Shown: one piece after another, positions 18,277 to 63,644 of the stretch
How positions within the stretch are numbered: position 1 is the first letter of the stretch
Layout of the letters: each line of letters opens with the position of its first letter
IMG/VR virus record: IMGVR_UViG_3300044655_001360
DNA length: 64,000 bases
Reading direction: 5' to 3' (one strand)
DNA from: a virus
Notes under the pieces: model-generated
What the model saw: the letters and a program-made list of their open reading frames with translations, nothing else
What the model was told of the DNA's origin: nothing
The model's database searches: none
Made by a program: the position numbers and the translations under genes

Positions 18277-19017
18277 TTACTTACTAGATAATGCAGGTAA
18301 GATGTACTTATATACCGCAATACCACTATCAACAATAATTTGCATCGCACCAACATCAGAAATGTTCATAGTTTTAGTACCAGCTAATCCAAGAATCTGA
18401 ATGATTTGATGCACTGGCCAAGACCAAGTATATTTTAAGGATTCAGTAGCAGTAACTGTATGGAATATAAAACTACCAGCATGAGTAGATGCATCACCAA
18501 AACTAACGATTAAGTTATTGTTCTTTGTACTTATTTCCAGAACTGGTTCTTGTGAATGAGCCGTACTTTGATACTTCAAACGCGTAATACTTGCAATAGT
18601 CGGTTCAAATGAAATCTTCCATTGTGCGCCATTGAATATAGCATTCTTGATCTTTTCGTTAATAACCGCAGTACTCATAAAACGGTAGTCATTTGAAAAG
18701 TCACCTGCTGCATTTTCAAAATGTAGGGAAGTAGGTACTTCAACTCCGTCACGTACTTCACGTACAACTTCAATTTTGCCATCTTCACGGTATTCAGGAC
18801 ATTTTAAATGAATGTTTAGTTTATCTAAGTTGGGTAAACCAAATACACCTTCGAATTCTGCAACTGGCTTATGTACTTCAGCCTGCAAAATAACCGATTT
18901 ATCTTCGGCAATAGATTCAATAGAAGTTGAAGTTGGTGTTCCAGTTACTTTTACTGTTGGTAAAATGCCTAATGAATGAGTGTGTGCTACGATGTCTTGT
19001 AGAGTATCTTTAATCAT
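18277..19017 (-). CDS. Probable DNA polymerase sliding clamp (gp45/PCNA-like)
   Basis: About 246 aa with an alpha/beta pattern, adjacent to polB, with a clamp loader in the window. Start taken at MIKDTL. The function is inferred, with no decisive motif. Confidence 0.45.
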   Translation of the reverse strand: MIKDTLQDIVAHTHSLGILPTVKVTGTPTSTSIESIAEDKSVILQAEVHKPVAEFEGVFGLPNLDKLNIHLKCPEYREDGKIEVVREVRDGVEVPTSLHFENAAGDFSNDYRFMSTAVINEKIKNAIFNGAQWKISFEPTIASITRLKYQSTAHSQEPVLEISTKNNNLIVSFGDASTHAGSFIFHTVTATESLKYTWSWPVHQIIQILGLAGTKTMNISDVGAMQIIVDSGIAVYKYILPALSSK

Positions 19018-19083
19018 AATATAATCTCGAGGTTTGAAGTTAAAATAATCCACATATAAGTGGAATCTGGTACTGCTTTGTGT

Positions 19084-19112
19084 AGTTTAATAGTTTGTCA
19101 CTGGATTGTCAA
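19084..19112 (-). promoter_or_regulatory. Sigma70-like promoter
   Basis: TTGACA-N17-TAAACT. Confidence 0.7.
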
Positions 19113-19154
19113 GTTAAATATGTACCTAGTGGATACTAGGTACAATATACCAAT

Positions 19155-19176
19155 GCGAGGCGCGTTAGTGCCGAGC
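19155..19176 (+). repeat. Hairpin element, copy 1
   Basis: GCGAG GCGC GTTA GTGC CGAGC (one G.T pair on this strand). Confidence 0.75.
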
Positions 19177-19181
19177 CTTAG

Positions 19182-20201
19182 TTAAAAAGAAAACAACGAA
19201 TTGAAGAAGTTATCCTGACGAGTTTCACTCAAATCCCAGTTGAGTACACCAATCAAGTTGTCCAACTTGTCATCAATCAACTTCTCTTCCATGATAGCTT
19301 CATCAAATGGAAGTTCCTTAAACCATTGAGGTAAACGTTGTTCATCAACTGGATACGCTACGCTCTTGAATCCCATCGGGTTATCTTTAAGTGTACAAAC
19401 CACCACTTTGGAACCATCGATAATAGACATAGTATACTTGTCACTATTCATGCGTTTTAAGGTATTCCAATTGATACTAGCTCTGACTTGACCTGGCATC
19501 GTTGCTTTGCCTTTATCGGTTAATAACGTACCATACTTGGTAATGTTATTAGCTCGTTTTGGTGAACCCTTTTCCCAACCATTCCATTTCTTGAATTCTT
19601 GTCTGAATTCGGTAATGTAATTGATTGTATCCTCTTGTGGTTTGCCATTGAGAACCATATCTAATACATTACTTAAGAAGTCTTGAATTGCCGGTGGCGT
19701 GTCAGATCGTCTTAAGTCCAAACCCATTGCTTTTACTTTACCAGCTTTGCCATTCACATCCATACGTTTACCTTCCTTGTCGAAGTAAAGAACCGCGTAT
19801 CGTTTTTTGGTGATGAACAGCGCTTTAGAACCAATGATCTCGCGGCCTGCTTTGATTACTGAACCACGTGCTTTTGGGCAATGAAATGCAGTAGACATGA
19901 ATTTTGGGAAAGTCTCGTTAACTTCCTCACCAATCGCATCATAAAACTGAATGATTGATTCTTTATCCCATGGGATTTGACCAGAATCAATCAATGGTTT
20001 CAATGTTGGGTATGCAGAGAAATACACCGAGTTATGAATTAAAATGTCGTTACCAAAAAACCATGGATGATCTTCGTTTTTCATACCAATGTCATATACA
20101 TATTCATCCTCTGCTTTTCTTAGAAGTTTAACTGACTTCACTTTTCCACGGTGTAAACTTATTGTGTTAGTTTGTTGCATAATACCATTCCTTAATTTCA
20201 T
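19182..20201 (-). CDS. polB: Family B DNA polymerase, C-terminal part, with N-terminal split-intein C-fragment (20031..20201)
   Basis: 'YVYDIGM...FFGNDILIHN|SVYF' gives intein blocks F/G plus the +1 Ser. Followed by PolB motifs KKRYA and KAMGLD..RSD. The real start may be MQQTN at 20180. Confidence 0.93.
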   Translation of the reverse strand: MKLRNGIMQQTNTISLHRGKVKSVKLLRKAEDEYVYDIGMKNEDHPWFFGNDILIHNSVYFSAYPTLKPLIDSGQIPWDKESIIQFYDAIGEEVNETFPKFMSTAFHCPKARGSVIKAGREIIGSKALFITKKRYAVLYFDKEGKRMDVNGKAGKVKAMGLDLRRSDTPPAIQDFLSNVLDMVLNGKPQEDTINYITEFRQEFKKWNGWEKGSPKRANNITKYGTLLTDKGKATMPGQVRASINWNTLKRMNSDKYTMSIIDGSKVVVCTLKDNPMGFKSVAYPVDEQRLPQWFKELPFDEAIMEEKLIDDKLDNLIGVLNWDLSETRQDNFFNSLFSF

Positions 20202-21171
20202 TGATGACAGTCTCTTTGTCTTTATACCATGCTTTTTCCCAGATTACAAATACTTCATATCCTTGATTATTGGCATATGTACGTTTTGCTTGATCGCGGG
20301 ACCAAATGAAATAAGCATGTTGTCCTTTTTGTTTAAAGTAAAAATCTCTATCATATAAGTCTGGATCAGCATGCCAGTATGATCCATAAAACTCAATCAA
20401 CTTCTTACGCGATGGATCACCGTAATCATATGGTCCAATATGTGGATTATCTAGTCTAAAGGATAATTGTAAATCTGGCATTACTGCAACTAAATCCTCA
20501 TATGCAGATAATTCGATTTTTGATTGTATTCGTTCAACCGATGCACGACCAATACAAAACGCATCATACTTTTCAGTTCCATCTTCAAGACCATAAGTTT
20601 CCACAAAATATTCCAATGACGTGGTATATCGTTGTTGCTCGCAGTATATATTCCAATTAACCATACCAGCAACTACACCATGGCGGTCTATCATGTTTTG
20701 TATCGTTTGAGATCTTGAATTATTATACGCATTGAATTCATCAATAGTCATACCATATTTTGCTTCCTTGTACTCGAAGGTGTTAGTTTCTGCCTGTACA
20801 TCACAGTAACTTTTCCATCTGATCTTTCCTTCTTCTTCGCCGTATTTTTCAATCATCGCGGCTTCTGTAACACCGCACAATTCTTTTAAGTTTTCTGACA
20901 CGATTGGCGATGTTGGATACCTATGTATATATTCCGCTATTGTAATACTTTCAACACATTTACTTTTCAAATGGGTTGGTGTGATACGTTTATATGATTT
21001 CCCACACATTGCACATTTCACTTGGCTATTTGGGTCCGCAGAATCGACGGATCTTCTACTAACACCATACTTGTTAGTCTTTATGGTTATCCCATTAACA
21101 GGGGGGTTAACGCCCAACGAGTTCAATAACTCACCATACAACTGTTTTGTTTCATCGTCAACATTGTTCAT
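20167..21171 (-). mobile_element. Free-standing Vsr-like (very-short-patch/DUF559-type) homing endonuclease gene between the polB halves
   Basis: N-terminal CxxC..H..C Zn-finger, KYG.E.G repeats and C-terminal 'IEFYGSYWH...RD..K...A...GY.V.VIWE'. Has its own AAGGA RBS. Confidence 0.8.
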
Positions 21172-21183
21172 GCTATATCCTTA

Positions 21184-23370
21184 TTAGTTTATAAAATCTG
21201 AGTGTTTCACCGATATCAATATATCAGTCTCTAAAATGTCAATCGGTTTAGTTTCAATTAAATTACCATCTCTCTCAACCATAACTGAATGGTCTTCAGT
21301 TACAATTATGGTGTTTCCAAGTTCATCTTCAATTTCGTACAAATCCTTTGATACTTTATGTCGGTATATGTAGTTAATATTACCATAATACGGTGCATCA
21401 TCTTTTAGACTATACGATAAAACTTGTAGATCTGGGTTACATGCATACTCCTTATCACCATTATTCCAAAACTCAGTACACCCGTTAAACAACTCTTCGA
21501 TTGTCTTAACTCCTTGATTTGTATGGTGTTTCGTTTCGGAAAATTCGGAATCCGTGTCGTTATAAATGATTGATTTTCCTAGATAATTATATTCACCACA
21601 TACAATCTCGTTAACTTGTGCTGTCATATGACGGGTAATCGACCGTCCAGTTAATGTTGTACTTTGACCAATGCGTTTATCGAAAAACCTACAACCACTG
21701 TTCAAAATCGCCCCATAGCAGGAGTTCAAAAGTAATTTGGTATACTGTTCTTTAATACTCCAGTATCTTTCCTCGATGTCAAGTCCAGCATCCCGAGCAA
21801 CTTTCATTTTTTTCTGCATTACTTGACGATCAGCATACCATTGTTTTAACAAACCGGGAATGATTCCCTCTTTTTCAAAAGTAAAGATAGTACCATTTGC
21901 ACTTAACATCCATGATTGACCAGATTTGAAAATTAAATCATAGGTTTGAGCAGCACTAAGTTCATCACTACTACCCTCTTCCCAATCTATAGTAAGCATA
22001 CGATTCGAATCTCTTGACATAACATCATCATATTCTAAAGTCGAAAATACGCCTTCCCAACATGAAGCAAACTTCTTACCTGTAGCCATTTGATCCGCAA
22101 TAAACTTATCAGTTGCCACTGGTCTAAGTTGACCGATAATAGTCTCTGGACTCATATTAAGTGCACGGATTGTACTAGGGTACAGCGAGTTGATATCTAA
22201 TGAAGCAACCCAATCATGTAGACCTTTTTTGGGATAAGCAACATACGCACCAGCAGCTTGCGTGTTTTCATTATCATTACGTGGCTTTCTATTAGGTGCA
22301 ATCTGCCCTTTACTATGCGCCTCATTGATAATAGCTTGTTCAATAGCTGCAACGGAACCTAACGTAGTTGGTAACAATACAGTACAACCATGAGCAGTCG
22401 TATTAGCCAAATCCATAAACTTCAACTTCTTATCCATTCTATCTAACAGTGCAACGTCTTGTCGGTTATATTCGATAAAAGTCTTAAAGTCTTGATTGTA
22501 TAGCTGTTCTAACGTACCATCATAAACAGTTTTATGGTCACCTAATTCATATTCAGCAATCGCATCTAATCGATAAGATGGCTTTTCTTCATGAGTATAC
22601 TTACGATAAATGTCCAAGTAATCCATATGAACTCGACCAACCAAATCGAAAGTAGTCGAAACCTTACCAAACTTCTCGAATTCACGTTTCTTAGGAGATT
22701 GATCCCATAAACAGAATCGACGAGTATCGTTCTTACTTAAAACCTTAGCAACACGATTAACGGTATATGGAATATCGAATGATTCAGAATTCCAACCACT
22801 TAATACATCAGCATCTTCGATAATAGTAAGGAACGTATCTAATAATTCCTTTTCTGTTTTAAAGATAAACGTATTCTCAAACTCAGCTACTTGCTCTTCA
22901 GCTTCTTTGATACTCATATGTTTTGGTGGAATTGCCAAACAAATCATAGTTTCAGACCACTGTAGATATACAGCAATAGAAACAATTGGCATAAAAGGAT
23001 CATCTGGTGCGGCATAGCCGCGTTCAGGACACATACTGGTCTCGATATCGAAATACGCGACATTGAGTTTAGGTGCATCTGCGTTAAGGTAATGGTCTTC
23101 AAGACAACGATAGGTAACATTGATATCACTTTCATATAACTTCTTGGTTTGACCAAATATAGCAATATTCTTATGATGTTCTTTGTGGGTTTTACTTTTA
23201 ACCCTAGACAATGGTTTACCTTTCATTGAATGATGGTTACCATTTGGGTCTTCGTAATAAAAGACATAGTTTGCTGGAAATTCTCGGTAATGGCGAATGC
23301 CATCTGTATCACGTTCAACTACGTGGATAATATCGCGATCTTTTTCATAAAAAGCATCTACATAACTCAT
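21184..23370 (-). CDS. polB: Family B DNA polymerase, N-terminal part, ending in split-intein N-fragment (21187..21549)
   Basis: Exo motifs FDIET, GWNS..FDIPY and YN.QD. Pol motifs DINSLYPS, KLLLNSCYG and YNDTD. Then 121 aa of intein (S-start, block B 'VTEDHS') and a TAA stop. Confidence 0.93.
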   Translation of the reverse strand: MSYVDAFYEKDRDIIHVVERDTDGIRHYREFPANYVFYYEDPNGNHHSMKGKPLSRVKSKTHKEHHKNIAIFGQTKKLYESDINVTYRCLEDHYLNADAPKLNVAYFDIETSMCPERGYAAPDDPFMPIVSIAVYLQWSETMICLAIPPKHMSIKEAEEQVAEFENTFIFKTEKELLDTFLTIIEDADVLSGWNSESFDIPYTVNRVAKVLSKNDTRRFCLWDQSPKKREFEKFGKVSTTFDLVGRVHMDYLDIYRKYTHEEKPSYRLDAIAEYELGDHKTVYDGTLEQLYNQDFKTFIEYNRQDVALLDRMDKKLKFMDLANTTAHGCTVLLPTTLGSVAAIEQAIINEAHSKGQIAPNRKPRNDNENTQAAGAYVAYPKKGLHDWVASLDINSLYPSTIRALNMSPETIIGQLRPVATDKFIADQMATGKKFASCWEGVFSTLEYDDVMSRDSNRMLTIDWEEGSSDELSAAQTYDLIFKSGQSWMLSANGTIFTFEKEGIIPGLLKQWYADRQVMQKKMKVARDAGLDIEERYWSIKEQYTKLLLNSCYGAILNSGCRFFDKRIGQSTTLTGRSITRHMTAQVNEIVCGEYNYLGKSIIYNDTDSEFSETKHHTNQGVKTIEELFNGCTEFWNNGDKEYACNPDLQVLSYSLKDDAPYYGNINYIYRHKVSKDLYEIEDELGNTIIVTEDHSVMVERDGNLIETKPIDILETDILISVKHSDFIN

Positions 23371-23449
23371 TTAAACTCCTGATTGTTTATGGCCAATCTT
23401 ACCGTATAATCCGACACTTATGGCGGTCGTAAACCTTATTGATTATAAC

Positions 23450-23692
23450 TTATTTGCCGTGTTTTAAGCAATACATAGTCACCAGTGGATTTTCTTCCAT
23501 TACGATTAAGTCAAACTGATACTTGCGATAATGCCTATTACGCTCTCTGTCTATTTCTGTTATCATGATTAGTTTTGGGCATACCTTAGTTACTACGCCA
23601 ACTCGTAAGTCGTTATGATGTGCAAATGCTACGAAGTTACCTGCTACTACTGGTCTACCTAGTTTGTCACTTTGTTCGATTATTTTAGCCAT
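23450..23692 (-). CDS. Hypothetical protein
   Basis: 80-aa ORF with an AGGA RBS. Confidence 0.55.
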   Translation of the reverse strand: MAKIIEQSDKLGRPVVAGNFVAFAHHNDLRVGVVTKVCPKLIMITEIDRERNRHYRKYQFDLIVMEENPLVTMYCLKHGK

Positions 23693-23714
23693 TTTGAATC
23701 CTAATATCAGTTAA

Positions 23715-29438: not shown

Positions 29439-30098
29439 TTAAGTTACGACATGTTCATAGATTCTACCGATAATGGCTTGGTTTCGCATCCTTAGCATCA
29501 AAAGAGTTTGCTCATCTTCTACTAGGATATATCTTGCATCACCAGACCATCTTGTATACATAATCCAATCTTGGATTGCTTCAGAGAATGTAATACGAGG
29601 TACTTGTGTATTCATCCACTTGATATATTCCTGCTTTTCAGCTGGATCAAGTATCTTATGTGGTTTCAAGAAAACCTTGAACCTATACTTACCATATGGT
29701 AATTTCTTAACAGAAATAACATTGGGTGTATCCAATATAGGATTTGTTAAGTCAGGTTCCCATCTTTCTAAGATTGGAAACTTAGCACTAATCGCATTAT
29801 ACATATTCACGTCATTTGTAAAGATAGAAATATCAAATTCCGTTCTAGCAGTCCAATCCGTTTTTGGATACATATCTACAAAATCAATCAATTCAATGAT
29901 TGCATCTTTATGGAGGTTCAACAAACGTTGTTGATGTTTGGAAAAACTCCAACAATAAGAACCGTTTTCGCAGAATTCTTTCATACGATTGCGGAACTTA
30001 TTGAAGTTTAACAACGCAGCACTGTATTGACTAACATCTATTGTGACTTTGTAAAGCCACTTGTCATAATACTTCTTAGTTGTCGTCTGCGTGATCAT
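29439..30098 (-). CDS. Hypothetical protein
   Basis: 219-aa ORF overlapping the clpA end. Confidence 0.6.
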   Translation of the reverse strand: MITQTTTKKYYDKWLYKVTIDVSQYSAALLNFNKFRNRMKEFCENGSYCWSFSKHQQRLLNLHKDAIIELIDFVDMYPKTDWTARTEFDISIFTNDVNMYNAISAKFPILERWEPDLTNPILDTPNVISVKKLPYGKYRFKVFLKPHKILDPAEKQEYIKWMNTQVPRITFSEAIQDWIMYTRWSGDARYILVEDEQTLLMLRMRNQAIIGRIYEHVVT

Positions 30099-32400
30099 CA
30101 GCTAATACCAATTGCCCATCTTCAACGATCAGTTTTTGATCTGATTCCACTACTGGTTTAACATACTCAGAAACTGTGAAAACGGGTTCGTCATTTTCGA
30201 TAGTAACTTTAACATGACCACCGTTAACCAAATCACCGAATAAAACACGACGACTTAATGGACTTTTCAGTTTAGTATCGATTACTCTTGAAAGAGGTCT
30301 AGCACCCATTTTCTTATCGTATCCAAGTTTAGCTAACCATTCAGCTGTAGTTTCATCGATTTCAATTAAGATATCTTTGTCTTTTAACTGGGCGTTTAAT
30401 TCACCAATGAATTTATCCACGATTTTAAGAACTGTACTATGTTCTAATGGAGCAAACTTGATGATAGCATCTAAACGATTGCGGAATTCAGGTGCAAAGT
30501 ATTCATTAATTGCTTTATCATCTTCACCAGTTCTAGCTAAATCACCAAACCCAATAGTATTACGTTCACTGTCACGAGCACCCAAGTTACTCGTCATAAT
30601 AAGAATACAGTTACGACCATCTGCTTGTTTGCCGTTAGAACCAGTTACAAAGCCATTATCCATGAATTGTAACATGATATTTGTTACATCAGGATGTGCT
30701 TTTTCGATTTCATCGAGTAGAAGAACACAGTGTGGATTTTCTTGCAGTTTAGTAATTAACTGACCTGCGTTGTCTTCAAATCCAACATAACCAGGAGGTG
30801 AACCAATCAATCTTGCCACTGAGTGTTTCTCTTGATATTCACTCATGTCAAAACGAACTAATGGCATGTGCATGTACTTAGCAAGTTGCATAGAAAAATT
30901 TGTTTTACCAACGCCGCTGGGTCCTGGGGCAAGAAAACATCCAATTGGTTTGTTAGGAGCTTTCATACCAGCTTGTGATAAGAAGATTTTATCAACCATT
31001 TTCTCAATAGCTTCGTCTTGTCCAAAGATAACCGATTTCAAATGAGGTTCTAATTCTTGCAAATCCGAACTTTCACGTTGATTCATTGATTCAAGTGGCA
31101 TACCTAGCATTTTAGACAATTCAAATGAAATCTGTTCGATGTCAACTATTTCAGTTACACCTTCAGTTGTCGGATCATCGTTCAATTTGAATCGAGCAGA
31201 AGCACAATCCAAGATATCAATTGCTTTATCTGGAAGTTGCTTGTCATTGATATACTTAACGGACAATTTAACTGCTTGTTCGATAGCTGCTGTAGTAATT
31301 TTCACATTATGATGTGCTTCATAATACTTACGAATACCTTTTAAGATTTTAACTGCCATTTCTGGTGATGGCTCATCCGCAGTAACTCGTTGGAAACGAC
31401 GCATTAATGCACGGTCATTTTCAAAGTGTTTGCGATAATCTTCCCATGTAGTAGAAGCAACAATTTTGATAGTACCTTTAGTTAATAAAGGTTTCAACAT
31501 ATTAGATAAATCATTAGCACTATTACTTGATGCACCAGCACCTTGCATCATATGAGCTTCATCAATGAATAATATAATTTTACCTTTTTTCACTAATGCT
31601 GCCAACACGCCTTTGATGCGTTCTTCAAAATCACCACGATACTTGGTACCAGCTAGTAACGAACTGATATCCAATGAATAAACTTCGTGGTCTTGAATGA
31701 ACTTAGGTACATCTTTCTCGTGAATTTTACGGGCTAGGCCAGCTATAATGGAAGTTTTTCCAACTCCTGGTGAACCGATTAAAAGTGCATTACACTTATG
31801 TCTACGAGCAAGAATCAATTGGATTTCTTCTAACTCGGTTTCACGACCGATAACTGGATCTATTTTGTTATCACGAGCAAGAGCACTCAAGTTAGTGCAA
31901 TACGCATCCAATAACTTATCTGGGTTTTTCGCACTACCAACTGCTTGATCACCCAAGTCACCATCTTCACGATTGGCATTGAAGTGTTTAGCAAACTTTT
32001 CTTTAGAAACACCACCACGATTAAAGAAGTAGTAAGCAAAACTGTTCTTTTCACTTAAGATACTAATGATAACATCAGTAACTTCAGTTGTATTACGACC
32101 ACTGAATACAACTTGAGTAAAGCAACGATGTAATACACGGTCAACCGAATTGGTTTTACGTGGTACGTGATTAGGATCATCGATTACGATTTCAGCCAAA
32201 TTGGTTTTCAAGTAGTGATCTAAGTTCATTTTAATAAACTTAGCATCTGCGCCAAAACCTTCGATTAAGTTATATGAATCTTGATCACTCATAATTGCAT
32301 ACGCAATATGTTCAAGAGTAATATACTCATGACTGTGTTCTTTTGCAATCTCAGTTGCTGCCTCAAAGATTGATTGTAAGTTTTTACTCGGTTCAATCAT
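30076..32400 (-). CDS. clpA: ATP-dependent Clp protease ATP-binding subunit ClpA
   Basis: Clp N-domain, two AAA+ modules (GSPGVGKT, GPSGVGKT, FIDEAH, LLLDEIEKAH), IGF ClpP-docking loop, no long M-domain. Confidence 0.93.
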   Translation of the reverse strand: MIEPSKNLQSIFEAATEIAKEHSHEYITLEHIAYAIMSDQDSYNLIEGFGADAKFIKMNLDHYLKTNLAEIVIDDPNHVPRKTNSVDRVLHRCFTQVVFSGRNTTEVTDVIISILSEKNSFAYYFFNRGGVSKEKFAKHFNANREDGDLGDQAVGSAKNPDKLLDAYCTNLSALARDNKIDPVIGRETELEEIQLILARRHKCNALLIGSPGVGKTSIIAGLARKIHEKDVPKFIQDHEVYSLDISSLLAGTKYRGDFEERIKGVLAALVKKGKIILFIDEAHMMQGAGASSNSANDLSNMLKPLLTKGTIKIVASTTWEDYRKHFENDRALMRRFQRVTADEPSPEMAVKILKGIRKYYEAHHNVKITTAAIEQAVKLSVKYINDKQLPDKAIDILDCASARFKLNDDPTTEGVTEIVDIEQISFELSKMLGMPLESMNQRESSDLQELEPHLKSVIFGQDEAIEKMVDKIFLSQAGMKAPNKPIGCFLAPGPSGVGKTNFSMQLAKYMHMPLVRFDMSEYQEKHSVARLIGSPPGYVGFEDNAGQLITKLQENPHCVLLLDEIEKAHPDVTNIMLQFMDNGFVTGSNGKQADGRNCILIMTSNLGARDSERNTIGFGDLARTGEDDKAINEYFAPEFRNRLDAIIKFAPLEHSTVLKIVDKFIGELNAQLKDKDILIEIDETTAEWLAKLGYDKKMGARPLSRVIDTKLKSPLSRRVLFGDLVNGGHVKVTIENDEPVFTVSEYVKPVVESDQKLIVEDGQLVLADDHADDN

Positions 32401-40118: not shown

Positions 40119-41678
40119 ATGACGAGAAAAAGATCAAGACACACGGATTCACGCGAGTATTTCAACGAAACGCATGAACCAAATACCCCACCCCAAAGCA
40201 AAAAAGCCCGTAGTAAAAACTCCAGTAGTAAACACCAGCAGTCCCATCAACAAAACCACCAGCAACAACCAGACCCACAGCAAATGTCAATCGATCAACG
40301 ATTGGCTGCTAAACGTAAACGGGTTCAAATTCACCCCAAAAACCTTAGCCAAGAACAATACTTAATGGAACTTAACAATCCTAAAAAACAAATTGTTTTT
40401 GCTATCGGGCCAGCTGGTACTGGTAAAGCTCAACCACTGTTTTCAAAAATAAAAATTCCAGGCGGTTGGACTACTATGGGTGATATCGCAGTAGGTGATA
40501 AAGTCACTACTCCTGATGGTAATACCGCTAATGTCGTCGGCTTATTCCCACAAGGTAGTAAACCGACTTATTCAATCACCTTGCACGATGGTCGTTCTAC
40601 TCTAGCCTGCGCTGAACACCTATGGGAAGTATTCCTTGATAATAAACCTGCAGTCATCAATACACTAGAACTACTTAAACTGCGTTATCATGGCTCTATT
40701 ATGCCTTATATTCGCCTACCTAAACACGAAATCATGGACGATGTAGAACTACCAATCGACCCTTTCCAATTAGGTACTATGCTCTTAAAAGACGATAAAG
40801 CTATCCCAGCGGAATATCTCAACGCTTCTCGTTCACAAAAAGTTAAATTACTACAAGGTCTGCTCGATACCAGTATTCATGCTGTCGATTCTGGTAACCT
40901 AGTCTTTACTGCCGGTGCCTTGTTACAAAACTCTGTTGTCTACCTTGTGCGTTCTATCGGTGGTTCTGCTTGTATCAAAGACACTGGTGTTCATATTCGG
41001 TTTAGTATCGTTGAGAGTCCTTTAGAGTTAATGCCGGTGTTGTCAGTTGTCGAATCCGAGGTGGAAGAGTGTCAGTGTATCTTGATCGATAGTGAGGAAC
41101 ACTTGTATGTTACTGATAATTATATAGTTTCCCACAACACGCTAATCGCAACTCAGTGGGCCGTTGATCAATTTAAAGCTGGTAAATGTGATAAGATTAT
41201 TGTAACTAGACCTGCAGTTTCAAACTCAGAATCTCTCGGTTACCTTCCTGGTAATTTGGAAGAAAAAATGCTACCGTGGACTGTTGGTATGTTTGACGTT
41301 TTTTACGAAAACTGGACTAAGGCAGAAGTCGAGTGGTTGATGTCCCGTGACTGTATATCCATTTCCCCGATGTCGTATATGCGCGGACGTACAATGAAAA
41401 ATGCTTGTGTTATTGCAGACGAGGTGCAGTTATGTAACCCAAGCCAAATGAAAATGCTTCTTACTCGAATAGGTGATCAGTCAAAAATGATTTTGACAGG
41501 TGATCTCGCACAAGCAGATAGAGGAGAATTTAACGGGTTAAAAGATTTTATGGGTTTATATGACAAGGCGTCTGTGAATAAGGAAGAATCCCGAATTGCT
41601 ATTGTTAGGTTTAGCCATTCAGATATCGAGCGGCACCCGGCAGTTGCCGAGGTGCTGAAATATTACGGTGAAGATTAG
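40119..41678 (+). CDS. phoH: PhoH-family ATPase containing an intein
   Basis: GPAGTGK|intein|T, TRPAV, LGYLPG..EEK..P, YMRGRT, DE.Q, LLTRIG, TGDLAQ.D, DI.RHP. Confidence 0.93.
   Translation: MTRKRSRHTDSREYFNETHEPNTPPQSKKARSKNSSSKHQQSHQQNHQQQPDPQQMSIDQRLAAKRKRVQIHPKNLSQEQYLMELNNPKKQIVFAIGPAGTGKAQPLFSKIKIPGGWTTMGDIAVGDKVTTPDGNTANVVGLFPQGSKPTYSITLHDGRSTLACAEHLWEVFLDNKPAVINTLELLKLRYHGSIMPYIRLPKHEIMDDVELPIDPFQLGTMLLKDDKAIPAEYLNASRSQKVKLLQGLLDTSIHAVDSGNLVFTAGALLQNSVVYLVRSIGGSACIKDTGVHIRFSIVESPLELMPVLSVVESEVEECQCILIDSEEHLYVTDNYIVSHNTLIATQWAVDQFKAGKCDKIIVTRPAVSNSESLGYLPGNLEEKMLPWTVGMFDVFYENWTKAEVEWLMSRDCISISPMSYMRGRTMKNACVIADEVQLCNPSQMKMLLTRIGDQSKMILTGDLAQADRGEFNGLKDFMGLYDKASVNKEESRIAIVRFSHSDIERHPAVAEVLKYYGED
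40428..41138 (+). mobile_element. Class-3-type intein (237 aa) in the PhoH P-loop, with degenerate LAGLIDADG remnants
   Basis: Starts AQPL; block B HLW, block F CQCI, block G YVT...SHN; +1 Thr. Confidence 0.88.
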
Positions 41679-61908: not shown

Positions 61909-62607
61909 TTAAACCCAGTTATCAATAATGAACTGGTCTTGAACTTCGTGTGGTTTTGGTTCGCCGTGAAATACTAATACACAGCATTCGTCTGATATAA
62001 CAGGGTTGTCTACTTTAGACTCAAAGTTTCGTTTACCATCGGTTAATACTAACTCGTTTCTATTACGAACTTCCCATTTGTAACTTTGTATCCATGAATC
62101 AGGCCAAAAGATAATTTTAGACTTGGCAATCCGCCATATCCAATCTTGGTCTCCGTGGGTTCGCATTGCTTCTTCTGGCAGTTTGATGAATTGTTCCCAT
62201 ATAATACCATGATCACCATGTGACCATGACATAACTGAACTATTTAAACATTTGTAGTCCTTGTTAAACTTACGATTGAAGTCACGGATACCATAGAAGT
62301 TTCCTTCTTTTGATATCAACTTATCAATATTACCAGTGATAACAACATCTAAGTCAAAATATAAGATGGTATCTTCTACAGGTAGATTAGGGTCAAACAT
62401 GTGTACTTTGTACCACCAACCACGTTTATAATCTGCAGTTGGTTGTACGATAAGTCTAACGCCTTCGATTGCGGTTGGATCATCTGTTAGGCAAACAAAT
62501 TCATATGGAACTGTTAAGTACCTATTTACCATGTTACGTAGTCTAATAACGTAATCGGGGGAGTAAGCAGTTCCAAATTTAACACATAATACGGTTATTT
62601 TCTTCAT
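61909..62607 (-). CDS. Glycosyltransferase (GT-A fold, GT8-like)
   Basis: CVK.G..Y...YV..L..MV, GWW.K..F, YFDLDVVI, NSSVM, GDQD, FHG.PKP. Confidence 0.8.
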   Translation of the reverse strand: MKKITVLCVKFGTAYSPDYVIRLRNMVNRYLTVPYEFVCLTDDPTAIEGVRLIVQPTADYKRGWWYKVHMFDPNLPVEDTILYFDLDVVITGNIDKLISKEGNFYGIRDFNRKFNKDYKCLNSSVMSWSHGDHGIIWEQFIKLPEEAMRTHGDQDWIWRIAKSKIIFWPDSWIQSYKWEVRNRNELVLTDGKRNFESKVDNPVISDECCVLVFHGEPKPHEVQDQFIIDNWV

Positions 62608-63583
62608 GTTGGTTAAAAAGTTGTTGAGATGCTAGGTTTTTTGATTTTGCTTCGCACATGATGTCAGCCCAAGCAAGATGAGTTAATGCCCAATCGTTAA
62701 TCTTGGTGTTATTGAACATATCGCTATGTGCACGAAGTTTACTTTTGCTTGATTCCAGCAATAGGGTATCCATTGATGGTATATCTATGTATTTACCTAA
62801 AAACTCTTCTTTGGATTGGCTATAGTGGATAACTGGTCTAACACCTTGCCAACTATCAATAACATGCTGAATTCTTGGATCAGTGGCTTTAATGTATTCA
62901 CCAGTCATAATCAAATGATGATGAATATCAAGCACGATGCCTACCTTATCTTTTAGTTCTAAAAGATCATCGAGACCTTTTTGATACTCGTCGTTTTCTA
63001 AAGTTAATGTATTTCGGAGTTCTGGACACATGCGATTCCAAGCTGCATTAAAGCCATCAGCACCTAGTTTACCACTAAGGTGTACATTGAGTTTAAAATC
63101 TAATTTGGATCGACCATAGCCCATCCAGCGTGCCATATTTGCATGGTATTCTAGTTCTTCAAGAGAACTATCAACGACTTCTGGTCTATCACTGACGATA
63201 CAGCAGAACTGACCTGGGTGAAAACTCAATCTAACTTGCTTTTCACGGGCTAAATTGCCAATCTTACTGAATCCTTGTTCTAAGTAGTTGATGACGTCTG
63301 GTTGTTGATAGAAGTTACTGAAATCTTTGTGAGTATAGGCAGTTAGTACATCAGAACCTATGCGAAGCATACGTAAAGATTCTGGTAGTTGGCCAACACG
63401 TTCAACTAACTTATAGGTAGCAGTTAAGTTAGCTTGCATTAAATCGGTTAGTTTTTGTTCTGCTGCTGCCCGTGATTGACGATTAAGCCAAGCGATTGTA
63501 GTAGTACCCATGTTTAATTCTGGTACGTTGACTACGCCTTTTGACGTTTGTTGAACGTATTTACAAGCAAATCCTATTCTCAT
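62579..63583 (-). CDS. uvdE: UV-damage endonuclease (UvdE/UvsE)
   Basis: RIGFAC, R.SFHPGQF, LENDE, VLDIHHH, HYS, RAHSD, DIMCEAK.K. Start at MRIGF; promoter at 63614..63642. Confidence 0.92.
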   Translation of the reverse strand: MRIGFACKYVQQTSKGVVNVPELNMGTTTIAWLNRQSRAAAEQKLTDLMQANLTATYKLVERVGQLPESLRMLRIGSDVLTAYTHKDFSNFYQQPDVINYLEQGFSKIGNLAREKQVRLSFHPGQFCCIVSDRPEVVDSSLEELEYHANMARWMGYGRSKLDFKLNVHLSGKLGADGFNAAWNRMCPELRNTLTLENDEYQKGLDDLLELKDKVGIVLDIHHHLIMTGEYIKATDPRIQHVIDSWQGVRPVIHYSQSKEEFLGKYIDIPSMDTLLLESSKSKLRAHSDMFNNTKINDWALTHLAWADIMCEAKSKNLASQQLFNQHEENNRIMC

Positions 63584-63644
63584 GATGTTCTCTGGTTGGT
63601 TTAAGTTGGGCATATACTAACTTACTAATTACATGATGTCAAAC

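Follow-up and report, generated by a model that had tools for sequence, protein, structure and literature searches.

A giant-phage family-B DNA polymerase gene broken at motif C by a predicted split intein and a Vsr-like endonuclease gene

The window analysed here, a 64,000-nucleotide stretch of DNA (IMG/VR record IMGVR_UViG_3300044655_001360), derives from an uncultivated giant phage that has PA5oct/MIJ3, SCTP-2 and the Rak2-like phages among its relatives. The ORF listing and the sequence itself place three ORFs on the minus strand at 23370..19182: PolB-N (23370..21184, 728 amino acids), an endonuclease (21171..20167, 334 amino acids) and PolB-C, which runs from 20201 or 20180 to 19182. All features described below lie on this same strand. 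PolB-N terminates in tandem stop codons, TAA TAA (21186..21181), the first of which is CAA in the variant L008 so that a single stop is present there. The endonuclease ORF has a ribosome-binding site, AAGGA, at 21182..21178, six bases 5' of its ATG, while that of PolB-C, AAGGAA at 20193..20188, is found seven bases 5' of the ATG at 20180. The latter start codon, whose equivalent is used by relatives, overlaps the stop codon of the endonuclease gene (ATGCAACAAACTAA). PolB-N and the endonuclease ORF share one frame, being separated only by TAA TAA GGA TAT AGC, and this shared frame is also present in L008; the frame of PolB-C is different. The spacer from PolB-N to the endonuclease gene measures 12 bases (9 in L008) and contains no hairpin.

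A scan of positions 18900-23700 found no terminator between the three ORFs, and a hairpin scan located a terminator-like 10-bp hairpin 3' of PolB-C (19121..19144). Promoter scanning of 18900-23700 yielded 25 sites, to be compared with 19.5 +/- 3.5 in shuffled sequence; since there is no excess, a separate promoter for the endonuclease gene cannot be claimed. The three tightly packed ORFs are probably co-transcribed.

The two outer ORFs carry complementary parts of a DNA polymerase. The N-extein (residues 1-607; 21550..23370), delimited by Pfam, PHROG and PDB matches, comprises an exonuclease domain, motif A (DINSLYPS), motif B (KLLLNSCYG) and, at its very end (..IIYNDTD), motif C as far as its fifth residue, so that the aspartates of motif C are all on the N fragment. 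It is matched by the Pfam families DNA_pol_B_exo1 and DNA_pol_B, the second of which is found in both polymerase halves, and by PHROG 262 (E 5e-143). The C-extein (19182..20030), defined by PHROG and PDB matches, consists of the 282 residues from Ser+1 (SVYF) to the stop codon and contains the end of motif C, a KKRYA motif and the thumb domain. It matches both PHROG 1918 and PHROG 262 and, in PDB searches, residues 700-851 of RB69/T4 gp43 (E 4e-14), the two exteins matching complementary portions of solved family-B polymerases. The exonuclease domain, motifs A, B and C, the KKRY motif and the thumb, by which a T4 gp43-like family-B polymerase is recognised, are all present. Joining of YNDTD to SVYF would, as anticipated by the initial annotation, rebuild a motif C (YxDTDS) that agrees with those of contiguous relatives and solved polymerases.

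The same annotation had proposed that motif C is interrupted by a split intein, with YNDTD leading into a 121-residue, Ser-initiated N-terminal part (IntN) closed by TAA TAA, and with a C-terminal part (IntC) ending in HN before SVYF; ORFs and sequence confirm this description. IntN (21187..21549), identified through alignments and its match to 9HTH, starts with Ser1 (S608 of the ORF) and ends ..HSDFIN, directly before the stop codons. Its block A, SEFSETKHH, is a Glu2/His8 variant, block B is T691-E-D-H694 (Thr-x-x-His) and motif NX is Arg670-His671, aligning to ..MKH.. of 9HTH; Arg or Lys followed by His, before and at the NX histidine, is a signature defined in PMC10189870. Neither of the two Cys residues in IntN is catalytic. 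IntC (20031..20180), delimited by alignments and PDB matches, has 50 residues when counted from the ATG at 20180 or 57 from that at 20201, bearing out the range of 50-57 given beforehand. It consists of a basic N-terminal segment of 24 residues, block F (VYDIG, with Asp30) and block G (His49-Asn50), and ends ..ILIHN immediately before SVYF. The net charge of IntN is -14 and that of the first 24 residues of IntC +5, opposite values which, as calculated from sequence, fit the capture-and-collapse model of split-intein assembly.

Ser1, the NX Arg-His pair, the block-B Thr and His, the block-F Asp, the terminal His-Asn and Ser+1, i.e. all the splicing residues, are the same in all 34 N-halves aligned (A4) and in all 36 C-halves (A5). 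Matches to the Pfam Intein_splicing model fall below its curated threshold, with E-values of 4e-8 (IntN) and 0.05 (IntC). Among solved structures both halves find their best match in the Aes PolB intein, 9HTH (E 2e-11 for IntN); IntC is matched best by 9HTH and 8CPN, and 5OXX/5OXW are found among the weak matches of IntN. By sequence criteria the intein is of class 1, in the Ser1/Ser+1 'cysteine-less' subgroup.

The middle ORF encodes a free-standing Vsr-like (EDxHD) homing endonuclease (20167..21171), assigned through homologues, of which there are more than 200, profile and fold. In its N-terminal part is a CCHC zinc-finger-like motif (C53, C56, H67 and C72; 20956..21015), Ros/MucR-like in character and at least 90% conserved in endonuclease alignment A3. 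The profile match of this region to Ros (2JSP) is weak, and PF05443 is annotated on some of the homologues. There follow three helical repeats (20527..20865), evident in A3, in the structural model and from PHROG 22677, with the consensus K/R-Y/H-G-x3-G-x3-W/Y-x2-Y/F-C; this region, presumed to bind DNA, is all-helical and of high pLDDT in the AlphaFold2 model. The Pfam NUMOD models have no match in the protein, where the CCHC finger and the three repeats are found instead. The nuclease core (20170..20526), defined by A3, profile and fold, contains D249, E260, W266-H267, D293 and W311-E312, of which D249, E260 and H267 are invariant in A3 and D293 and the others are at least 90% conserved or invariant.

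A PDB search with the single endonuclease sequence returned chance matches only, Vsr being reached by the family profile, which matches 1CW0 at an E-value of 0.003 and aligns D249, E260, W266-H267 and D293 to D51, F62, W68-H69 and D97 of Vsr, Glu thus occupying the F62 position. When the AlphaFold2 model (pLDDT 86) was submitted to Foldseek, ranks 1-4 were taken by 1CW0, 1VSR and 3R3P (Vsr and I-Bth0305I), all at a probability of 1.00 and with E-values of just 0.007-0.06 for the whole multi-domain model as query. As modelled, the endonuclease has the EDxHD catalytic residues and a Vsr-like fold, and the earlier claim of a 334-residue Vsr-like enzyme with its own ribosome-binding site is upheld by the AAGGA sequence, the profile match and the top Foldseek ranks. 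The EDxHD prototype I-Bth0305I (3R3P; PMC3239194) resembles it in catalytic set, in Vsr-like core (Foldseek TM 0.70 on target) and in a bipartite organisation of N-terminal DNA-binding part and C-terminal nuclease, but is encoded by a group I intron and bears NUMOD repeats, whereas the present enzyme is free-standing within an intein gene and has the CCHC motif and three helical repeats.

Contiguous relatives of the intein run from ..ILISxK.. straight into ..ISLHRxxVKSV.., from which it follows that the endonuclease gene sits exactly in the canonical intein loop. Its distribution among orthologous inteins is patchy, a pattern that is consistent with mobility. By analogy with the Dassa model, its target would most likely be an endonuclease-less allele of the intein and not necessarily an intein-less polB.

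Taken together, we consider it very probable that the locus is a fractured replicative family-B polymerase gene, with a split intein at motif C and a Vsr-like endonuclease in the intein loop, for which trans-splicing, cleavage and homing are inferred. In this scheme a mini-intein would have lodged in the catalytic motif (YNDTD|S), and the homing endonuclease gene would have entered the loop that ordinarily houses an intein's endonuclease. The acidic 121-residue IntN and the basic start of IntC would associate and fold as a HINT domain, as suggested by tested homologues. Splicing would then proceed by the class-1 oxyester route, using the invariant residues listed above, and would yield a polymerase of 889 amino acids with an intact YNDTDSVYF. 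The endonuclease is presumed to be a selfish passenger that cuts endonuclease-less polB alleles during co-infection, its gene then presumably being copied into the cut allele by repair.

This layout is real, but it has already been described, and bench-tested, in related phages. The initial annotation recognised it as the known 'fractured gene' architecture, which the gene order and the published or annotated phage relatives bear out; the precedent is narrower than the general architecture of 2009, in that this very intein family has already been published for this PolB site. In the fractured genes that Dassa et al. described in 2009 (among them gp41-1, NrdJ-1 and IMPDH-1; PMC2677866) a host N-terminal part with IntN, a free-standing gene for a GIY-YIG or Vsr-like endonuclease and IntC with the host C-terminal part are found on one strand, as here. 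PolB is missing from the eight host types given there, and at those loci 27-51 non-coding bases, often including a hairpin, lie ahead of the endonuclease gene, in contrast to the short hairpin-free spacer seen here; the longer spacer is a described, not a strictly defining, feature of fractured genes.

A homologous split intein at the identical PolB site is known from the Pseudomonas jumbo phages MIJ3 and PA5oct (Imam et al. 2019, PMC6892783). Insertion point (..DTD|S) and split loop are those observed here, an endonuclease gene again separates the halves, and the inteins are around 51% identical over the junction region, with the near-identical blocks TIEELFN, VTEDHS, VYDIGMKN and ILxHNS. The intervening gene encodes a 560-residue 'Hef-like' protein, called HNH in PMC6892783, which has only the nuclease motif IE(F/Y)xGxYWH in common with the present 334-residue Vsr-like enzyme, and block A is of the usual kind, SVDGSTIL against SEFSETKH here. 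The family, with a Vsr endonuclease, is annotated in GenBank in Aes508, AS-gz and PTm1/PTm5 (Aeromonas and Tenacibaculum phages). Aes123/Aes508 PolB1, from T4-like Aeromonas phages, is likewise a Ser1/Ser+1 split intein at ..DTD|S, with genes that overlap in the manner seen here and an intervening gene for a homologous Vsr-like endonuclease (32% identical over 230 residues); its IntN, on the other hand, is only around 33% identical to the present one. These phages belong, unlike the present one, to the Straboviridae, and in Aes508 polB is interrupted a further time, upstream, by a group I intron and a GIY-YIG gene. The Aes intein literature goes by the name Aes123 PolB1, not Aes508.

Trans-splicing has been demonstrated experimentally for Aes123 PolB1 (PMC11923092), and also for LCGC14 PolB2 and PolB16 (PMC12707363, PMC10189870). 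Members of the family characterised as tools for protein engineering include Aes123 PolB1/CL/CLm, LCGC14 PolB2, CP21, GOM-OPS-1 and PolB16 (PMC11923092, PMC12707363, PMC10189870). LCGC14 PolB2, GOM-OPS-1 PolB2, CP21 PolB1 and PolB16 OarG are cysteine-less split inteins placed, as here, in motif C, with Ser1, Ser+1 and the NX histidine (PMC12707363, PMC10189870). They have an IntN of 115-120 and an IntC of 39-46 residues, share YRHKVSK, DHS, EYVYDI and FFGN.ILVHNS with the present intein and represent other natural alleles, PolB16 being split after residue 15. The family-B polymerase of Nanoarchaeum equitans (Neq Pol) also contains a naturally split Ser1 intein but, unlike the present locus, is archaeal and thermophilic, with halves at separate loci and no endonuclease between them.

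Selection was gauged by comparison with L008, a JGI metagenome contig of 93.5% DNA identity with the identical three-ORF layout. In this single pairwise comparison, where IntC has few changes, dN/dS was 0.006 for the N-extein, 0.027 for the C-extein, 0.028 for IntN, 0.10 for IntC and 0.14 for the endonuclease; as judged from these substitution ratios, all parts are under purifying selection. The strong selection on the intein halves, the invariance of residues needed for splicing chemistry alone (Ser1, NX His, block-B Thr/His, the terminal Asn and Ser+1) and the in vitro splicing of the homologous Aes123 and LCGC14 inteins (PMC11923092, PMC12707363) all argue against the idea that the halves no longer splice and serve only as a non-covalent dimerisation module for the polymerase fragments. 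Such an arrangement, which we regard as improbable, has a documented parallel, cited in PMC2677866 and PMC3045599, in the non-covalent working of intein-less split gp43 (Aeromonas phage 25) and NrdA (Aeh1), and would accord with the unusual block A and with an N fragment bearing every motif C aspartate. Judged from this locus, it is very unlikely that the polymerase gene is decaying while replication relies on another polymerase elsewhere in the phage genome: a PolA-like protein does adjoin polB in the relative SCTP-2, but the low extein dN/dS values, the intact polymerase motifs and the conservation of the layout across a large phage clade all speak against decay. That the stops and the frame change arose through errors of sequencing or assembly within one large continuous intein containing an endonuclease domain, an alternative named beforehand, or are bypassed by read-through and frameshifting, is scarcely credible despite the single frame of PolB-N and the endonuclease here and in L008, since the separate Logan assembly L006 is 100% identical over 4401 bases and L008 keeps the layout, while the endonuclease and PolB-C have their own ribosome-binding sites, the former its own ATG and the latter another frame, and the three-gene layout recurs in PA5oct, KP13-7, Aes508, PTm1 and many metagenome contigs, where the frame relation varies.

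For the fractured-gene reading, the consequence is that replication in such jumbo phages should depend on protein splicing, PolB motif C being a recurrent target of invasion by inteins and homing endonucleases there. Current understanding is unchanged, the gain being incremental: a catalogue entry and a family-wide view of evolutionary intermediates. Cysteine-less split inteins are rare and are wanted for protein ligation under oxidising conditions; only a few of those available are efficient, and further pairs that are orthogonal have practical value. The locus supplies another natural candidate, drawn from a family with many members. It is possible that the present pair is a new orthogonal split intein, one of dozens of natural relatives. 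These metagenome relatives include contiguous mini-inteins, inteins split with either of two unrelated endonuclease types and a split form that lacks an endonuclease.

The usual block A of the family is Ser-Val..Ile8, in place of which the present intein has Ser-Glu-Phe..His8. Glu2 and His8 occur together in 40 of 66 relatives, contiguous inteins included, and Glu2 without His8 in none of the 66; the Glu2/His8 block is absent from the construct sequences of characterised relatives that were compared. Degeneration of block A (SEFSETKHH) was considered and rejected, given the retention of the variant in those 40 relatives and the IntN dN/dS of 0.028. More speculatively, and with considerable doubt on our part, Glu2/His8, which covary perfectly, might mark a distinct serine-intein subclass with an altered N-terminal active site, in which case the 121/50-residue pair might be efficient, free of catalytic cysteines and orthogonal to Aes/CLm and LCGC14. 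As a separate matter, the family might keep every stage of the proposed route of gene breaking. Were this so, the origin of split inteins could be reconstructed, and tested, inside a single lineage.

Three tightly packed ORFs occupy 19182-23370 on the minus strand. The first (23370..21184, 728 aa) encodes the N-terminal part of a family-B DNA polymerase that includes the exonuclease domain as well as motifs A and B of the palm (Pfam DNA_pol_B_exo1 and DNA_pol_B; E 5e-143 against PHROG 262). This part ends ..IIYNDTD at residue 607 and is followed from Ser608 by a 121-aa segment, the intein N-half (IntN), terminating in ..VKHSDFIN and then TAA TAA. Twelve bases separate the final sense codon from the start of ORF 2 (21171..20167, minus strand), a 334-aa endonuclease preceded by an AAGGA ribosome-binding site. 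ORF 3 has two candidate start codons. The ATG at 20180 lies seven bases downstream of an AAGGAA site and overlaps the ORF 2 stop (ATGCAACAAACTAA), and its equivalent is used as the start in close relatives (protein P0189; the gene call in the Logan contig L006). From this ATG, a 50-aa leader, the intein C-half (IntC), terminates in ..GNDILIHN and is followed by SVYF; beyond the leader come 282 aa of polymerase, including the KKRYA motif and thumb, which match residues 700-851 of RB69 gp43 (E 4e-14). The initial annotation had described the same Ser-initiated N-part with paired stops, the C-part ending HN, and the intervening endonuclease with its own ribosome-binding site. It had also proposed that splicing would rebuild motif C, and computed joining of YNDTD to SVYF does restore this motif, in an 889-aa enzyme. 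Directly past the PolB-C stop lies a perfect 10-bp hairpin (TGTACCTAGT..ACTAGGTACA; 19121-19144, minus strand), terminator-like and with a poor T-run.

The possibility, raised at the outset, that the stops and frame changes are assembly errors is ruled out by two further contigs: L006 (SRR27430846), assembled separately, is 100% identical across the 4401-base region, and the JGI metagenome contig L008, 93.5% identical there, likewise has the three ORFs, CAA replacing the first TAA so that a single stop is left. In the one pairwise comparison made, window against L008, synonymous changes predominate in every region, with dN/dS of 0.006 for the N-extein, 0.027 for the C-extein, 0.028 for the intein N-half, 0.10 for the intein C-half, where changes are few, and 0.14 for the endonuclease. 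Within the limits of that single comparison, this argues that the two exteins, two intein halves and endonuclease are all functional.

The full residue set of the class-1 splicing pathway is present. In metagenomic alignments, Ser1 and block-B Thr691/His694 are invariant among 34 N-halves, as are block-F Asp30, His49-Asn50 and Ser+1 among 36 C-halves. Arg670-His671 of IntN form the 'NX' signature, a His that invariably follows Arg or Lys and that, according to PMC10189870, is found only in inteins having Ser at each junction. For each half the top solved-structure match is 9HTH; this is the intein of Aes123 PolB1, and measurements of its trans-splicing are published (PMC11923092). Both cysteines of IntN are non-catalytic. 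Split inteins are known to use an electrostatic capture step, and the predicted charges, strongly acidic in IntN (net -14) and basic in the first 24 residues of IntC (+5), fit such a step. Block A reads SEFSETKHH, compared with SVDGSTIL in Pseudomonas phage PA5oct and the like. Decay of this block is ruled out by its conservation and covariation among 66 PolB homologues from metagenomes in which the DTD|S junction is recognisable: Glu2 is found in 40, with His8 in 40/40 of these (His8 totalling 43), while the remaining homologues are hydrophobic at positions 2 and 8. Since Glu2 is always paired with His8, block A is, as judged from these homologues, a conserved covarying variant.

Among the same 66 homologues, 45 are split, ending after a 115-128-aa N-half, and in the other 21 the mini-intein is contiguous and 160-205 aa long. 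The endonuclease of an intein usually occupies one particular loop. Since ..ILISxK.. continues straight into ..ISLHRxxVKSV.. in the contiguous forms, the endonuclease gene of the window can be placed at exactly that loop. The gene between split halves is Vsr-like in the window, L008, KP13-7, Aes508 and PTm1, and Hef-like/DUF723, of 560-574 aa, in PA5oct and the related contig L009 (6191-7915, 574 aa). In contig L010 (6380-6500) the split halves lie nine bases apart with no endonuclease between them, and in L007 (1075-2052) the intein is contiguous, yet a Vsr-like gene breaks polB further upstream. Because contiguous forms, split forms with varied endonuclease genes and split forms without one all exist, the Dassa gene-breaking model can be traced through all of its stages, at the level of sequence, within one orthologous intein family. 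The homing target of the endonuclease would be that expected from this model. In SCTP-2, KP13-7 and the proteins P0253-P0257 the intein sits two residues upstream (YGD|TDS versus YGDTD|S), with Thr or Ser chemistry, and that of SCTP-2 has Lys-Asn in place of a terminal His-Asn. Within one homologous family the site of insertion seems to have shifted. An extra 35-40-aa segment (MKT.NLKDAFK.LILS..) precedes the ISLHR strand in about two thirds of related C-halves, e.g. P0190 and P0217 (IntC alignment A5, columns 1-45), and in the longer contiguous inteins; it is absent from the 50-aa IntC of the window.

As initially recognised, the 'fractured gene' architecture was already known: its general form dates from 2009, when eight host types were listed, PolB absent among them (PMC2677866). 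The same intein, split at the same site with an endonuclease between its halves, was described in 2019 in the PA5oct-like phage MIJ3 (PMC6892783), and the MIJ3/PA5oct intein blocks are nearly identical to those of the window. GenBank entries for Aes508, AS-gz, PTm1 and PTm5 have an 'intein-containing split DNA polymerase precursor' adjoining a 'VSR endonuclease'. Split inteins without catalytic cysteines that have been characterised experimentally include Aes123 PolB1 with its engineered forms CL/CLm, LCGC14 PolB2, CP21 PolB1, GOM-OPS-1 PolB2 and PolB16 (PMC11923092, PMC12707363, PMC10189870); since DTD precedes and Ser follows them, these inteins are, judging by their flanks, at the same PolB site as that of the window. 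Given MIJ3, the GenBank annotations and the characterised inteins, the window locus is one more member of an already described kind. Orthogonality to CLm is known for LCGC14, which shares 35% identity with Aes, making it plausible by analogy that the window intein, about 33% identical to Aes, is orthogonal to the characterised split inteins.

The endonuclease has more than 200 homologues, at least seven of which, from equal listed contig sizes, probably share contigs with PolB halves of the same family. Its initial description as Vsr-like is borne out in both catalytic residues and fold. A profile of 32 homologues matches E. coli Vsr (1CW0; E 0.003), aligning D249, H267 and D293 with Vsr D51, H69 and D97 with E260 taking the place of Vsr Phe62, an arrangement identical to that reported for Vsr-like/EDxHD homing endonucleases (PMC2677866, PMC3239194). 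In Foldseek, the four top matches of an AlphaFold model built on the 32-homologue alignment (mean pLDDT 86) are Vsr and the catalytic domain of I-Bth0305I; as a multidomain query it gives modest E-values. A CCHC zinc-finger-like motif (C53, C56, H67, C72) and three helical repeats precede the nuclease core, the repeats having no match to Pfam NUMOD models. Codons 1-100 (20872-21171, minus strand) show far higher divergence from L008 (dS 1.57) than the remaining codons (0.1-0.2), which suggests a mosaic origin, the 5' part having recombined from another allele. Most homologues have a fourth KYGEExG repeat in this region, absent from the window copy.

Another intein, contiguous and 237 aa long (40428-41138, plus strand), lies within the ORF at 40119-41678, where it interrupts the P-loop of a PhoH-like ATPase (..GPAGTGK|AQPLF....YIVSHN|TLIA..); Pfam finds only two PhoH pieces in this ORF. 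In the PDB it matches best to the DnaB intein 6BS8 (E 4.5e-11) and next to gp41-1. With Ala as first residue, Trp after the block-B His, Cys in block F and Thr at +1, it may belong to class 3. Also encoded in the window are a full-length double AAA+ chaperone of the ClpB/ClpA type (30076-32400, minus strand; PHROG 4871, E 5e-242) and a UV endonuclease of the UvdE type (62579-63613, minus strand; Pfam E 9e-38).
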